Part shown: positions 2,814 through 8,383 of the stretch, piece after piece
How the letters are laid out: every line of letters starts with the position of its first letter
Position numbering within the stretch: the stretch's first letter is position 1
Origin: Candidatus Latescibacterota bacterium
GTDB taxonomy: Bacteria; Latescibacterota; UBA2968
DNA length: 64,000 nucleotides
Assembly (NCBI GenBank): GCA_965204375.1
Contig: OZ241986.1
Span: forward strand, 5,248,001 to 5,312,000
Direction: 5' to 3'
Notes under the pieces: model-generated
What the model was told of the DNA's origin: nothing
Databases searched by the model: none
Seen by the model: the letters and a program-made list of their open reading frames with translations, nothing else
Translations under genes and position numbers: made by a program

Positions 2814-3119
2814 CTATCTCCTTGTGTATTGTCTTGTTTCATTCCGGGTTGCCTTACGTGCCGAGATTAACCGTATTCGGGCAGTTACCGCTGTCTCCTC
2901 CCGATATGTGTGACAAACAACCAATAAACTACCTGTTCGATCTATGCCAAGAATGATCCATCTATCCTCGTCTTGGCTGTGCTCCTCGTCAAACTCAGAG
3001 AAGGCGTGTGGATCCCAGAAAACAGTAGCAGCACGCTCAAAAGCAATGCCATGGTCCTGAAGATTTCGTTGCGCTTTAACGGGGTCCCATTCAAATTGAT
3101 ATTGAAACGGGTTAGTCAC
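2814..3119 (-). CDS. brnT: BrnT family toxin
   Basis: FEWDPVKAQRNLQDHGIAFERA...DEEHSQDEDRW...RLISARKATRNE. Confidence 0.9.
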   Translation of the reverse strand: MTNPFQYQFEWDPVKAQRNLQDHGIAFERAATVFWDPHAFSEFDEEHSQDEDRWIILGIDRTGSLLVVCHTYREETAVTARIRLISARKATRNETRQYTRR

Positions 3120-3342: not shown

Positions 3343-4977
3343 TTACTTTACGAACCGATTAAATACATTCTCCATCATGCGTTGCACGCGCGGGTCCGGG
3401 CCTTGCGGCTCGGCAACCCGCGCGGGTAGTACGTGGCCGGGAGGCGATGACAAACCTTGCGCCCACCAGATCGTCCCGGCGTTGAACACAAAGTTGTTCC
3501 TGGGCCCGTCGTAGATCGTCGCGACATGGGGCGGTCTGACTTTTCCCTGGTTATTTTTCGTGGTGCCTTTCGCCAGGATTTCCATCCCGGGCTGATCGTA
3601 AGGGGGAGAACCATGCCATTCCCATCCCACCAGGCCTTTGATTGCGTCGCCTTCTTTCAGGTCTGTGCCTTGATATAGCCAGTGATCGGGCTTGACGCAG
3701 ACCCAGTCTCCGCCGCCGCCGATACCGGCCGTACGTCCACCCATAAGCAGCGCCCCGTCCGGCCCTGGCGGAGACTTGGCGGGGGTGCCGCGTCGCTTGT
3801 TCAACATCTTGCTGAGTTCCTCACCAAAGAACTTATCTTCGCGTCGCATAATCCGGTGGAGCTGCCCCTCGGCAGAGGGCAGCAAAGGCACCACACCCCA
3901 AACCGAATTACCACTCAGGAACGCAAGGTTGACGCCCGCGTCTCGGGCCGCGCTGACGTTGTCATACATCTCCCGCGTCCAATACTCGTCATGGCCCACG
4001 GAGATAAAGCCTTTGGTGCGTTGTAATCTCGGACCGTGCCTGTGCGTATCCACATTTGAGATATACGACACATCGTAGCCCTGCTGCTCCATCCAATAGG
4101 ACAACGGGAATTCCCAGAGAAGAAATTCGCCCGAACCCTGGGACTTGGGATTCTTGACCAGATGATCCTGGCAGAACTGCGCGTAGGGACGGTCAAAACT
4201 CACCCACCCGGTATCGTTCGCGTTGGTGCTCCACTTTTTCCTTTTCTTATATCCCGTGTAGCCATTCTCGTCGTTGTGGTAAAGAGACCACTCGTTAGTA
4301 GGCCAACTGTTGTAGGCTTGCCAGGTCATGTCGCTGCACTGGAAGAGCAAATCGCAAGGCCGGTCGTCGCGCACAATGAAGATGACGTAGCTTTGCAGAC
4401 CTTCCTTCTCGGCTGTGAGTTTCCCGAGATAGACGCCGCTCAGCCAATCGTCTGGAATCTCAAATTCTACGGAAGGTTCCCACTTGCATTCTCGCAGACG
4501 GTTTTCGCCTATCGACGGATCGGCCTGGGTTTTGCCCTGTATAGAATCAAAGCGCTTCATGGACCGCCCGCCGGTGCCGCCGTAGTAACCCGTGCGGAAG
4601 ATCTCCAGATCAAACTGGGACACTGGATTCGTGCTCACCATGATCTTGATCGTGTCGCCAGTGCTCACGCTCGTCTCGGAGCAGTAGCCCTCGATTCGCG
4701 GGGAACGCCACAACTCTACCGGTTCGATGTCGTTGATGTCGGTCTTAGTGAGCATCCAGTCGCGCGTTCCACGCTCGGCGTTTTCGAGTTGGATACGATT
4801 GCGTCGTTTTGATTTCGATGCGTTTGAATTTCCGTAGAGTTGTGGTGCGCCGAATGTTCCGGCTGCGAGACCGAGACTTGTGGCGGCGACGCCTTTGATT
4901 AAATCACGGCGATTCAGGCCATTTTGACACGTAAAACGCTTCCAGAAATGAAAAACTGCTTTCAAATCTTTGCTCAT
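3343..4977 (-). CDS. Tat-exported N,N-dimethylformamidase beta-subunit-like (DUF6605) protein
   Basis: NRRDLIK Tat motif, TWQAYNSW, VSFDRPY, ISVGHDEYW, VFNAGTIWW; start MSKDL after AGGAG. Confidence 0.8.
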   Translation of the reverse strand: MSKDLKAVFHFWKRFTCQNGLNRRDLIKGVAATSLGLAAGTFGAPQLYGNSNASKSKRRNRIQLENAERGTRDWMLTKTDINDIEPVELWRSPRIEGYCSETSVSTGDTIKIMVSTNPVSQFDLEIFRTGYYGGTGGRSMKRFDSIQGKTQADPSIGENRLRECKWEPSVEFEIPDDWLSGVYLGKLTAEKEGLQSYVIFIVRDDRPCDLLFQCSDMTWQAYNSWPTNEWSLYHNDENGYTGYKKRKKWSTNANDTGWVSFDRPYAQFCQDHLVKNPKSQGSGEFLLWEFPLSYWMEQQGYDVSYISNVDTHRHGPRLQRTKGFISVGHDEYWTREMYDNVSAARDAGVNLAFLSGNSVWGVVPLLPSAEGQLHRIMRREDKFFGEELSKMLNKRRGTPAKSPPGPDGALLMGGRTAGIGGGGDWVCVKPDHWLYQGTDLKEGDAIKGLVGWEWHGSPPYDQPGMEILAKGTTKNNQGKVRPPHVATIYDGPRNNFVFNAGTIWWAQGLSSPPGHVLPARVAEPQGPDPRVQRMMENVFNRFVK

Positions 4978-5097
4978 AATACACGCTCCTGATAACGAAA
5001 TACTTGACACTTTCCAATCGCATCCTATAATAGCAATCGCGTTATGTAAACACAATGCGAAAAATCAGATTGCGGTGTTGTGGTTGCTTGTATGTAG

Positions 5098-5260
5098 TTG
5101 CATTTGATTTTCATCCTGTTCATCCTTTCATCCTGATAATCCTGATTCAGACTGTGGTTGCTTTTCTGCATTTGATTTTCATCACTGGATAGAATCATTC
5201 CAGTGCAGGCTCTGTTCATCCTTTCATCCTGATAATCCTGATTCAGACTGTAGTTGCTTT
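5098..5260. repeat. two tandem copies of an intergenic repeat (ctgttcatcctttcatcctgataatcctgattcagactgt)
   Basis: Visible directly; the second copy carries a 28-nt hairpin insertion at 5184-5211. Confidence 0.85.
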
Positions 5261-5383
5261 TTTGCCTTTCATCTGTGATTGCTATAATAAAGGAGTAAGA
5301 AAAAAGTTGAGTATGAAGGCCATAGTTGCCAAATTCGAAGAGGAAGAAAAAACCATTTCATTATATTCTTCGAGGAGGCAACC

Positions 5384-6652
5384 ATGGCCAAGACGCACAA
5401 GCATTCGCAGTATGTTTCTCCCAACACCTTAATCATTGGGATCGATATCGGTAAACAGGTTCACTTTGTCAAGATGATGTTAGATGGTATGCAGATCGCC
5501 AGTTTTAAACTCTACAACGAAGGTCGCGCCTTTATGTCTTTGCTGCAAAAGATTCAACAGGTTAAGAACCAACATCAATGTACCGCGTCCCTCATTGGTA
5601 TGGAACCTACCGGACATTACTGGTTGCCGTTGGCCTACTTTCTCCAAGCTCATAAGCAGCCTTTTGTCATCGTCAAGCCTTCCCACGTGCGCTGGTCAAA
5701 GGAACTGGCAGACAACAGTCCCTTGAAAACAGACCAAAAAGATGCCAGCGTCATTGCCGAGTTAGTGCGTCAAGGCACCTATCACAGTGCCTATCTCCCT
5801 GAAGGGGTCTATGCCCATTTGCGGACATTGACCGCGATGCGCTATCACAAGAAAGACCAAATCGCAGCGACTAAAAACGTGCTTCATCGTATCCTAGATG
5901 TATGCTTCCCTGAGTTTGTGACCCTCTTTAGCGACCTGTCTGGCAAAACCGCCCGACAACTTCTGAGCGTGGCACCGACGCCTTTGCAGATACAAGCCCT
6001 TGGAATAAAAAAACTTACGGCCTTGATCCGCAAGGCATCTAATCATCGCCTCAGTAAAGCCAAAGCCAAAGCTGTGCTCAAGGCGGCCAGAGCTTCTATT
6101 GGCGTGAGCCAGGGTTTGGACAGTGTCTGTATGGAACTGTCTCAGACCCTCTGCTTACTTGAGCTTCTTAATACCCAACTGCAAGAGATCGAAACCCGTC
6201 TGCAAGAGCACTTACAAAACATACCACAGGCAAGATATATGTGCTCAATCCCTGGCATAGGACCTATCACGGTCGCCTCCATACTCGGTGAAACAGGGCC
6301 CTTCACTGCTTATGATGCCCCTGAAAAACTCATCAAACTGGCTGGCTTAAATCTCTTTGAAATCTCTTCAGGACATAAAAAGGGCAGGAGAAGGATCGCC
6401 AAACGCGGACGATCCAGACTCAGACGCATACTCTATACAGCTATCTTGCCCCTCATCATACATAATCCCATATTCAATGAGACCTATCACCGATTCAAAG
6501 AGGCAGGAAAACCCAATCAAAAAGCCTTTGTTGCACTGTGCACGAAACTCTTACGCATCCTGTTTGCACTGGTCAATAAACAAGAAGTATTTAATACCGA
6601 CTTCAACACGAGGAAGAATCACAAAGCACAAATCGCGCCCAAAGCGGCTTAA
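5384..6652 (+). CDS. IS110 family transposase/recombinase
   Basis: DEDD residues in IGIDIGK, GMEPTGHYW and KTDQKDA; SIPGIGPIT; EISSG serine motif; KRGRSRLR. Confidence 0.97.
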   Translation: MAKTHKHSQYVSPNTLIIGIDIGKQVHFVKMMLDGMQIASFKLYNEGRAFMSLLQKIQQVKNQHQCTASLIGMEPTGHYWLPLAYFLQAHKQPFVIVKPSHVRWSKELADNSPLKTDQKDASVIAELVRQGTYHSAYLPEGVYAHLRTLTAMRYHKKDQIAATKNVLHRILDVCFPEFVTLFSDLSGKTARQLLSVAPTPLQIQALGIKKLTALIRKASNHRLSKAKAKAVLKAARASIGVSQGLDSVCMELSQTLCLLELLNTQLQEIETRLQEHLQNIPQARYMCSIPGIGPITVASILGETGPFTAYDAPEKLIKLAGLNLFEISSGHKKGRRRIAKRGRSRLRRILYTAILPLIIHNPIFNETYHRFKEAGKPNQKAFVALCTKLLRILFALVNKQEVFNTDFNTRKNHKAQIAPKAA

Positions 6653-6830
6653 GCTCCTGGGATGAGCGGGACAGAACTGTGATGAACATGCGGGCTTTGA
6701 CCCTGAATCTGTGACGTGTTCGCCTGCCTCTCAGGAGCTTGAATGAAGCAATTTAAGGGCACAGACCCTCGATGACATACCTGTGTAAAGCCCTGAGACA
6801 TAACCGGCAGGATTAACCGCTCGACTCTCG
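6651..6830 (+). ncRNA. predicted bridge/seek RNA of the IS110 element
   Basis: Closing stem aagctcctg/caggagctt; target guides gatgaaca (6681-6688) and atctgtg (6707-6713); donor guides agcaat (6747-6752) and atacctg (6777-6783). Boundaries approximate. Confidence 0.8.
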
Positions 6831-6867
6831 TTTTTGGCACTTTTATCACTTGACTTTCTTATACCTG

Positions 6868-6890
6868 TTCATCTGCGTTCATCTGCGGAT
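6868..6890 (+). repeat. atctgcgttc 10-mer repeat remnant (right half of the IS target)
   Basis: ttcatctgcgttcatctgcggat; same family as 18606 and 28721. Confidence 0.85.
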
Positions 6891-6910
6891 ACTTTTTTTG
6901 GGAGTTTTTT

Positions 6911-8383
6911 ATGGCATCGACAACCAATTATCTCGCTTATGATTTGGGTGCGTCCAGCGGTCGGGCTGTTTTGGGGCGTTTTGATGGCGCGCGTCTGGAT
7001 ATTGAAGAGGTTCACCGTTTTCCCAATCAGGGGATACCTGTTGGCAATCATTATTATTGGGATGCGTTGCGGCTGTTTGACGAGATGTGTACGGGGTTGC
7101 GTCTCGCTGTTCGGTCCGGGGAACCGCTCAATGGCATGGGCTGTGATACCTGGGGGGTCGATTATGGCTTGCTCGATGCGCAGGACAATTTGCTCGGCAA
7201 TCCCTTTTGTTACCGCGATGCGCGCACACAAGGGATGATGGAGGTTGCGTTTGAGCGCGTTTCTCGCGAGGAGATTTTTGAGCAGACGGGTATTCAGTTT
7301 ATGGAGCTTAATACGCTTTATCAGTTGCTCGCGCAGCGTCTCGCGCAGTCGCCCCAGCTCGATATTGCGCGTACGTTTCTCACGATGCCCGATTTGTTCA
7401 ATTTCTGGTTTACGGGTATGAAGGTGTGTGAGTATTCCAATGCAACGACCACGCAGTTTTACAATCCGCGCGAGAATGCCTGGGCAAAATCAATGCTCAA
7501 TGCGCTGGATATTCCCACGGATATGCTTCCGGATGTGGTGTCGCCAGGTACGGTGCTCGGTCCTGTTCGCAAGAGCATTGCGGATGAGATGGGTATTGCA
7601 CCTGTTGACGTGATTGCACCGGCTTGTCACGATACGGGGTCGGCGGTTGCGGCTGTGCCCCTTTCTTCGCCCGATGCGGTTTATATCAGTTGTGGCACAT
7701 GGGCGTTGATGGGGGCGGAATTGCCCGAACCCGCGATTAATAAGCGCGCGCTCGCACACAATTTTACCAATGAGGGCGGTGTTGATCATACGATTCGGTT
7801 TTTGAAGAATATTTCGGGGCTGTGGATTGTGCAGGAGTGCCGCCGCGTGTGGGCTTTGGCGGGGAAAGATTATTCGTGGGAAGAGTTGATGGGGCTGGCG
7901 ATGGCGTCGGATCGGCTCGCGTCGTTTATCGATCCGGATCACGCTGATTTTGGTACGCCCGGGAATATGCCGTCTCGCATTCGGGATTTTTGCAGGCGCA
8001 CGGGTCAACGGCTGCCCGATAGTGAGGGAGATATTATTCGCACGGCACTGGAGAGTCTGGCGCTCAAATGTCGCTATGTTCTGGGGCAGCTCGAAGATGT
8101 ATTGGGCAAGACGCTGGGGGATATTCACATTGTGGGTGGGGGTATTCACAATACGCTTTTGTGCCAGTTTATCGCTTCTGCGACGGGACGTGCGGTGCTG
8201 TCAGGTCCGGCTGAGGCGACTGCAATGGGCAATCTTTTGATGCAGGCGATGGGCAAAGGGCAGATTGGCTCTTTGGATGAACTTCGCGATGTTGTGCGCG
8301 CTTCTACTGCGATTAAGACATACAGCCCGACAGATACGGATGCCTGGGACGAGGCGTTTGAAAAATTTCAACGGGTGATGTGA
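6911..8383 (+). CDS. rhaB: rhamnulokinase-family (FGGY) carbohydrate kinase
   Basis: YDLGASSGRA, DTWGVDYGL, CHDTGSAV, NFTNEGGV, LKNISGLW. Confidence 0.85.
   Translation: MASTTNYLAYDLGASSGRAVLGRFDGARLDIEEVHRFPNQGIPVGNHYYWDALRLFDEMCTGLRLAVRSGEPLNGMGCDTWGVDYGLLDAQDNLLGNPFCYRDARTQGMMEVAFERVSREEIFEQTGIQFMELNTLYQLLAQRLAQSPQLDIARTFLTMPDLFNFWFTGMKVCEYSNATTTQFYNPRENAWAKSMLNALDIPTDMLPDVVSPGTVLGPVRKSIADEMGIAPVDVIAPACHDTGSAVAAVPLSSPDAVYISCGTWALMGAELPEPAINKRALAHNFTNEGGVDHTIRFLKNISGLWIVQECRRVWALAGKDYSWEELMGLAMASDRLASFIDPDHADFGTPGNMPSRIRDFCRRTGQRLPDSEGDIIRTALESLALKCRYVLGQLEDVLGKTLGDIHIVGGGIHNTLLCQFIASATGRAVLSGPAEATAMGNLLMQAMGKGQIGSLDELRDVVRASTAIKTYSPTDTDAWDEAFEKFQRVM

Follow-up and report, generated by a model that had tools for sequence, protein, structure and literature searches.

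A predicted bridge RNA and naturally exchanged target guides in an IS110-family element of a Latescibacterota genome

We analyzed a 64,000-nt stretch of DNA (hereafter the window) from Candidatus Latescibacterota bacterium (UBA2968; assembly GCA_965204375.1, contig OZ241986.1, positions 5,248,001-5,312,000 of the forward strand), in which an insertion sequence occupies window positions 5278-6865. Sequence comparison leads us to propose, with a probability of about 0.88, that this is a single, apparently intact IS110-family element that would recombine at a TG core and encode, on the gene strand and downstream of its transposase gene, a bridge RNA (or seekRNA) with a length of about 160 nt. Guides for the target and for the element's own ends can be read in the predicted RNA, close relatives with exchanged target guides occupy matching sites, and the predicted fold is conserved among distant homologs.

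Results

A TG-flanked insertion sequence encoding an IS110-family transposase

The element amounts to 1588 bp and one TG. TG cores border it on both sides, at 5276-5277 in the left junction (..ttcatctg TG-attgctataat..) and at 6866-6867 in the right junction (..cttatacc-TG ttcatctgcg..). The left half of the target is one 10-bp unit, ttcatctgTG (5268-5277, + strand), which ends in the core; the left target guide described below fits it at 7 of 7 positions, and the same flank is found without the element in sister species. On the right, the core is followed by two further units, ttcatctgcg ttcatctgcg (6866-6887 including the core, + strand). The TG core had been predicted from this single copy, and TG was found on both sides of all 16 full copies that we collected. 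The length between cores is 1588 bp in 14 of these copies, and 1592 bp and 1585 bp in the other two.

The non-coding ends differ in length, with 106 nt on the left and 213 nt on the right. The left end (5278-5383, + strand) contains the right-donor site attgct (5278-5283), a TATAAT -10 box (5283-5288) and one arm of a subterminal inverted repeat, tataataaag (5283-5292); its first 16 nt recur with at most two mismatches in 16 of 16 full copies. The right end (6823-6865, + strand) begins with a U-rich tract that follows helix P1 of the predicted RNA, and continues with a TTGACT -35 box (6850-6855), the second repeat arm ctttcttata (6854-6863) and the tip ..tatacc. Read from the sequence, the two arms match at 9 of 10 positions, while a repeat search lists another register of 12 nt and 83%. 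The end extensions (attgc and cc) and the TG total 9 nt.

Insertion at a specific site, at a short core and without target duplication, is indicated by the 16 TG-flanked copies, by empty orthologous sites and by a metagenome contig. At the position of the element, two sister species have an unbroken run of 10-bp repeat units, before the same downstream gene (95-97% identical), reading ..gcctttcatctgcg tttatctgcg gatac.. in G076 and ..gcctttcatctgtg tgtatctgcg ttcatctgcg gat.. in G083. The contig, from a sponge-metagenome DNA run (X5), links 5275 to 6866 with a 2-letter overlap and omits 1590 bp; its flanks are repeat-rich and it may derive from a paralogous site. Other joints in metagenome contigs (e.g. 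5273 to 6905) stem from repeat-rich variants of the intergenic region and were left unused.

The transposase gene (5384-6652, + strand) is open and full length, and encodes a protein of 422 aa. It matches Pfam PF01548 (2e-30, residues 18-176) and PF02371 (Transposase_20; 5.2e-22, residues 284-369), and scores 229 bits with the NCBIfam model NF033542, 'IS110 family RNA-guided transposase', whose cut-off is 140. In alignments, D21, E74, D117, D120 and S329-G330 coincide with the catalytic positions of IS621, as named in PMC11208158, and of ISCro4; the N-terminal alignment is weak (7.8-9.2 bits), and in the alignment with IS621 only the C-terminal domain fits well (E = 2e-6). The DEDD RuvC-like and Transposase_20 domains, the aligned catalytic residues and the guides of a target and a donor loop, read from sequence and covariation only, place the element in the IS110 family.

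Four guides in the 3' non-coding region

The original prediction had read four guides, matching the flanks and ends of the element, in the 3' non-coding region, and we located all four on the + strand. The right target guide GAUGAACA (gatgaaca, 6681-6688) is the complement of the top strand TGttcatc, that is, of the core and right flank (6866-6873), and the left target guide AUCUGUG (atctgtg, 6707-6713) equals the left flank and core (5271-5277). The right donor guide AGCAAU (agcaat, 6747-6752) matches, in reverse complement, the six bases attgct with which the left end begins (5278-5283), and the left donor guide AUACCUG (atacctg, 6777-6783) equals the last five bases of the right end and the core (6861-6867). 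Small hairpins lie between the guides as predicted, ggg/ccc (6692-6694 with 6701-6703) in the first loop and aggg/ccct (6756-6759 with 6766-6769) in the second. The right-side guide does come first in both loops, an order published for IS1111-type seekRNAs (PMC11187229).

As a chance control, the 188-nt 3' non-coding stretch was shuffled 20,000 times with dinucleotides preserved, and matches at least as long as those observed were counted. The right target guide was matched in 224 shuffles, the left target guide in 345, the right donor guide in 603 and the left donor guide in 271 (each 1.1-3%), while none of the 20,000 reproduced all four. The longest matches were 8, 7, 6 and 7 nt in the observed strand, compared with 5, 6, 3 and 4 nt on the opposite strand and 4, 5, 4 and 5 nt in the 1269-nt transposase open reading frame (ORF).

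We note that the base after the left target guide (window 6707-6714) is A, the first base of the left end, in 16 of 16 copies, and that the left guide strand of Firmicutes relatives continues ..AG CA(T), which corresponds to the core and the first left-end bases. Because the guide strand runs into left-end bases, the target loop also fits the integrated left junction.

Guides and targets vary together among relatives

A search of genomes and metagenomes for close relatives gave matches only in Latescibacteria records and in one metagenome contig. When 168 genomes of the phylum, including that of the window (G000), were scanned at E <= 1e-60, the subfamily was present in five, all among the 21 genomes of one genus (0 of the 147 others). 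The 16 full copies comprise the window copy, seven in G075, four in G091, two in G078, one in G085 and one in the metagenome contig; at least L169 and L174 represent one site shared by two genomes. Transposases of the relatives are 77-92% identical, and the RNA scaffold, donor guides and ends are kept. Variation in the RNA alignment is concentrated at the target-guide positions, with scattered other changes in stems and linkers, and the donor guides AGCAAU and AUACCUG are invariant in eight relatives.

Four guide sets occur among the 16 copies, each in a target that fits its own guides. The pair GAUGAACA and AUCUGUG is found in the window copy and in L173, with target halves ..ATCTGTG and TGTT(C/T)ATC, while GAUAAACA and AUCUGUG are found in L084, with ..ATCTGTG and TGTCTATC. 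Twelve copies carry AGUUGUACA and AGCGGUG, with ..GCGGTG and TGTACAAC(T), and one (L164) carries AGUUGUACA and AACGGUG, with GAGCGGTG and TGTACAACT. Thus AUCUGUG copies occupy ..ATCTG-TG-T(T/C)(C/T)ATC.. targets, and AGUUGUACA copies occupy ..GCGGTG-TGTACAAC.. targets, one of them with the left flank AACGGTG. Counted contiguously from the core, the left guide matches its own left flank over 7 of 7 nt in 14 of 16 copies and over 5 nt in two; the right guide matches its own right flank over 8-9 nt in 12 of 16 copies and over 7 nt in two. In L173 and L084 a single internal mismatch leaves 7 of 8 right-guide positions matched; in L173 it is a G opposite T.

L173, whose protein is 92% identical, has the same guides as the window copy at a different site in a sister genome. 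Together with the right flank (TGTCCATC) of L002, a solo fragment described below, the specificity of the GAUGAACA/AUCUGUG set is thus seen twice plus in L002. The test that the original prediction had put forward, covariation of guides and targets across homologs, is therefore borne out by 16 copies, with four guide sets and four matching kinds of target. This natural covariation and the open ORF also lend support to its description of an intact and reprogrammable recombinase, which we would keep as a sequence-based proposal. Natural reprogramming is known for ISEc11/ISXne4 and ISEc21/ISMch6 (PMC11187229).

On a wider scale the donor guides vary together with the ends, as AGCAAU accompanies ATTGCT in this subfamily and AGGAAU(G) accompanies CATTCCT in Firmicutes relatives. 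In a crude test on distant relatives, the left guide matched the flank in 34 of 43 loci.

Is the window copy a relic?

It is conceivable that the element and its RNA are as described and that the copy in the window is a dead relic that no longer moves. We consider this alternative rather unlikely. In its favor, the 6.34-Mb genome holds one full copy despite 14 exact empty targets, the subfamily is patchy within the phylum, and neither a transcript nor a circle junction was found in the contigs of the metagenome and RNA runs. Against it, the ORF is open and full length compared with homologs of 422 aa, its catalytic residues are present, and both ends and the whole RNA match the model. Moreover, a 169-bp stretch elsewhere in the genome, consisting mostly of the element's 3' end, is 99% identical, which suggests a recent event. 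Finally, the 92% identical copy with the same guides sits at a different site in a sister genome, and sister genomes hold seven and four near-identical copies.

A conserved three-way junction in the predicted RNA

Compensatory changes and a covariance model support a three-way junction as the core of the predicted bridge RNA (6664-6822, + strand). Helix P1 (6664-6668 with 6818-6822) joins two arms: P2 (6669-6674 with 6716-6721) closes the target loop, while P3 (6723-6728 with 6806-6811) is followed by P4 (6729-6740 with 6788-6798), which closes the donor loop. The structure was proposed by RNAalifold and then refined by hand. Among eight close sequences, four pairs are changed on both sides and 98.6% of cells are paired, with one pair showing the series C-G, U-G, U-A.

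Of 157 distant loci, with transposases 35-42% identical, 100 were searched with the covariance model built from the close relatives. The 68 matches, 63 of them at E <= 0.01, fell in 66 of the 100 loci, all on the gene strand and 3' of the gene, and all but four spanned the whole model. Paired cells make up 90.3% of the total in an alignment of 61 distinct distant sequences, compared with 63.7% in shuffles and 33-49% with slid partners; doubly changed cells number 560 versus 181, and the covariation score is 0.595 versus 0.195. The frequent G-U pairs in this alignment point to RNA from the gene strand rather than to DNA. Within the clade, conservation is lowest in the target-guide columns, and the donor-guide columns rank among the most conserved.

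The original prediction had drawn the RNA differently, with the target loop inside an aagctcctg/caggagctt stem (6651, 6732) and a separate second loop. The complementarity exists: aagctcctggga (6651-6662, + strand), which begins inside the stop codon, is complementary to tctcaggagctt (6729-6740) over 12 nt at 92%, a pairing that excludes P4. Folding also gives a hairpin at 6649-6742 with -40 kcal/mol and z = -4.05, and its stem is 98.7% paired in eight distinct close relatives, in which the 5' arm is invariant. What covariation favors, however, is the three-way junction. The predicted stem has no compensatory pairs and three broken cells (L005, L174), whereas the competing helices have four such pairs and strong covariation in the 61 distant sequences; a counterpart of the 5' arm at z < -2 was found in 0 of 38 distant loci; and the second loop as drawn lacks a closing stem, which the conserved fold provides. 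Taken together, these comparisons support a three-way junction as the conserved fold, in which caggagctt would pair downstream to close the donor loop, and the enclosing stem is a lineage-specific alternative of the Latescibacteria subfamily.

The competing arm starts within the stop codon of the transposase gene, and either 5' processing or a ribosome terminating there could therefore decide between the two mutually exclusive folds, a long hairpin that would present the target loop only and a full three-way junction with both loops, and so couple formation of the donor loop to translation of the gene in cis. We regard such a switch as quite improbable. A hairpin-only form may be comparable to the short seekRNA or 'TBL-only' species known from other reports.

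Other searches of the region were negative. The fold of the whole region 6640-6870 is no better than that of shuffles (z = -0.10), and an Rfam scan of 5000-7000 returned seven weak matches, all far below the gathering score and none of them to a bridge RNA family. The second loop folded alone (6741-6800) gave z = -0.5, and its predicted pairing of GGGCACAG with CUGUG..GCCC was rejected, being one that relatives do not keep.

Two side observations concern the RNA of relatives. Those in metagenome runs X5-X20 have six extra nucleotides behind 6820, either just within helix P1 or directly following it. In L043 (Halonatronum saccharophilum), three tandem matches to the RNA model (2840-3003, 3579-3742 and 4144-4194) lie downstream of one transposase gene at spacings of about 740 nt and about 565 nt, the last match being cut by the end of the locus; these may be repeated RNA/right-end modules.

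Placement within the IS110 family

The element had been called IS1111-type, and its layout agrees with this. As in IS1111 elements (PMC11208160, PMC11187229), the longer non-coding region lies downstream of the gene; in the present element the RNA model also matches there, and the left end is short. The match to the top strand, GAUGAACA (6681-6688), precedes AUCUGUG (6707-6713), and a top-strand target match 5' of the bottom-strand match is described for all IS1111 seekRNAs tested (PMC11187229). For IS1111 elements, PMC11187229 describes near-perfect subterminal inverted repeats that mostly measure 11-13 bp and have 7+3 or 6+3 extensions, and PMC11208160 gives 7-17 bp; here the candidate repeat is 10 bp with 9 of 10 positions matching, and the extensions with TG come to the same 9 nt as the '6 and 3' variant in PMC11187229.

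The protein does not fit so well. At 422 aa it lies outside the 330-350 aa of IS1111-family transposases, while the subgroup around IS110 spans 395-455 aa (PMC11187229), and some IS110-type elements also have a 3' non-coding region (PMC11187229). Plasmid relatives that carry an IS name are limited to ISBth13 (30%), IS116 (24%, full length) and ISEc32 (C-terminal part only), and database homologs are mostly of 415-430 aa, labeled 'IS110 family transposase' or 'transposase' only. We therefore assign the element to the IS110 family broadly defined, with an IS1111-like layout, a provisional placement judged by layout and published length ranges. That it is a strict IS1111 member with an RNA folded as originally drawn is, given both the protein and the covariation above, unlikely.

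Target repeats in the host genome

The 13-nt reconstructed target has 14 exact copies in the genome and 119 at no more than one mismatch. It represents the boundary where units of a tandem repeat of 10 bp, (T/C)NCATCTG(C/T)G, meet. This repeat forms 94 arrays, each with 2-5 units, and GAT follows 72 of them; TTCATCTGCG occurs 178 times, compared with about 12 expected. Targets of the second kind (TGTACAACTG...CAGTTCAT) correspond to the base of a repeat that forms a hairpin. Insertion in host repeats is typical of the IS110 family (titles cited in PMC11208160; PMC12288879). While fragments of so common a repeat could appear anywhere, and each single guide match is not very rare in shuffles, it is hardly credible that the guide-like strings are scraps of the host repeat or of earlier target sites, or chance matches, as no shuffle gave all four, the ORF and opposite strand reach 3-6 nt only, the relatives in GCGGTG-TGTACAAC have exactly the guide positions altered to fit in an otherwise conserved scaffold, and the donor strings match the element's own ends rather than the host repeat.

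The surroundings are themselves rich in repeats. Arrays of the 10-bp unit are often preceded by a GC-rich hairpin and CCCTACA, and the intergenic region that holds the element (window 5100-5277 and 6868-6890) is composed of dispersed repeats; a second one (..cctgataatcctgattcagac..) has 42 occurrences at no more than three mismatches. The same intergenic region varies strongly between sister species, from zero repeats to several arrays. At 6871-6900, ahead of a gene on the + strand, the scan scored a terminator-like hairpin (atctgcgttcatctgcggat + ttttttt) on that strand, made up of the repeat units with ggat and a T-run.

Two fragments of such elements lie elsewhere in the genome. L002 (G000:C1:1602055-1602223, minus strand), the 169-bp stretch mentioned above, corresponds to window 6710-6878 and is a solo 3' end with the first bases of the right flank. 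It starts exactly inside the left target guide (..tctatctg tg-tgacgtg..), its left flank resembles the left half of the target (tctatctgTG), and its right flank reads TG tccatctgcg tccatctgcg, with one TG more than a simple deletion predicts. Aberrant recombination at the DNA that encodes the guide could have produced it, or it could be a partial module comparable to the solitary ssr9 copies of ISPpu9. L003 (G000:C1:5065746-5065788) is a 43-bp right-end relic (..tttgactttcttatacTTG) that adjoins cacaactgcgatagcagttcatc, the kind of target used by AGUUGUACA-guided relatives, and a second guide variant may once have been resident in this genome.

Near-identical pieces of the element are present in sponge and marine metagenome runs (X5-X20) of about ten studies, from which we take the host to be probably a sponge-associated bacterium.

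Discussion

In the mechanism that we propose, the 3' non-coding region would yield a bridge RNA folded as a three-way junction with a target arm and a donor arm. The RNA-loaded DEDD/serine recombinase would bring the joined ends of an excised circle to the junction between two 10-bp repeat units (..ATCTG TG TTCATC..) and exchange strands at the TG. One TG between the joined ends would put TTGACT (6850-6855) and TATAAT (5283-5288) 17 nt apart, and the circle junction would thereby make a promoter for the gene, of a kind described for ISEc11 and ISEc21 (PMC11187229). Transcription, RNA processing, the circle and catalysis are all steps that we would expect by analogy with published relatives. 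The RNA may be cut from the 3' end of the gene transcript, with the U-rich tract after P1 ending it.

Several observations weigh against this interpretation. A simple promoter scan found none before the RNA, only a weak 9/12 match inside the ORF (6288-6316), and none convincing at the integrated left end. The only RNA-library match (run X18) is one assembled contig of a relative that spans the complete element, its depth being about half that seen in the DNA run from the same sample, with an RNA/DNA depth ratio similar to that of the upstream gene; because the same contig is present in that DNA run, it is not evidence of transcription. The single full copy in the genome gives no evidence of recent activity there. 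The right donor guide stops before the core, the next RNA letters being UU rather than CA, and so lacks a complement of the TG. In distant relatives, where the right boundaries of the elements are not fixed, matching between right guide and flank is unsupported (12 of 43 loci; longest common substring 6.19 nt on average with the own flank versus 5.97 nt with others). As for the fold, the last P2 pair is G-G in the window and unpaired in four of eight close sequences, and when 6649-6659 are included the minimum-energy structure is the long hairpin (-55.7 kcal/mol, versus -49.3 for the three-way junction); the two folds are thus within about 6 kcal/mol, and the predicted winner depends on whether the RNA starts before or after 6660. 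The counts from distant sequences lean toward the three-way junction because their alignment was fitted to the model structure, although the margin is large.

The element resembles IS621 (PMC11208160, PMC11208158) in having a DEDD RuvC-like domain and a Tnp domain with an S-G motif, a two-base core within the guide pairings, a repeat-sequence target and a promoter that would span the joined ends, as well as one RNA with a target and a donor loop, each with a left and a right guide around a small hairpin. It differs in that the RNA is encoded downstream of the gene rather than in the left end, the core is TG rather than CT and the protein has 422 aa rather than 326 aa. Moreover, here the right guide comes first in each loop, the right donor guide carries no core complement, and a common helix would close the two arms into a three-way junction.

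With the IS1111 seekRNAs of ISEc11, ISPa11, ISKpn4 and ISPst6 (PMC11187229) the element shares the downstream non-coding region, the predicted junction promoter, a top-strand match 5' of the bottom-strand match with overlap of the two in the target, probable subterminal inverted repeats with short asymmetric extensions, and natural retargeting as in ISEc11/ISXne4. Its transposase is about 80 aa longer than the 330-350 aa given there, its inverted repeat has 10 bp and one mismatch instead of the usual 11-13 bp, and its hosts belong to a probably sponge-associated, uncultured Latescibacteria genus, with distant relatives mostly in Firmicutes. A Firmicute is also the host of CazIS110-1, from Caloranaerobacter azorensis (10.1101/2025.10.25.684509), whose bridge RNA measures about 170 nt; its target and donor parts, of ~77 nt and ~87 nt, resemble the two arms found here in a comparison of described sizes only. 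ISPpu9/Ssr9 of Pseudomonas putida (PMC12288879) likewise sits in host repeats, with an RNA gene downstream and solo RNA modules reminiscent of L002; in contrast, the RNA described here carries guides and the ends of the element would form a promoter.

The mechanism is already published (PMC11208160, PMC11187229, PMC11208158), and the element is a new example of the known bridge RNA recombinases. The full-text literature searched, with supplements outside the search, held no description of an IS110 element from Latescibacteria or of a three-way-junction bridge RNA; the clade may already have been classified in Durrant Supplementary Table 5 and Siddiquee Supplementary Fig. 2.

In summary, the analysis adds a predicted bridge-RNA system, with a readable protein, RNA, donor ends, TG core and target, from a probably sponge-associated and uncultured genus of Latescibacteria, in which close relatives that differ almost only in their target guides sit in matching sites and thereby appear to document natural retargeting. 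A large, mostly Firmicutes clade of transposases of about 415-430 aa, unnamed beyond 'IS110 family', shares one predicted Y-shaped 3' RNA (66 of 100 loci). The covariance model described here could be used to annotate the RNAs of this clade, which Rfam 15 does not detect, and the element offers tool builders a further ortholog to try, with another core and another architecture.

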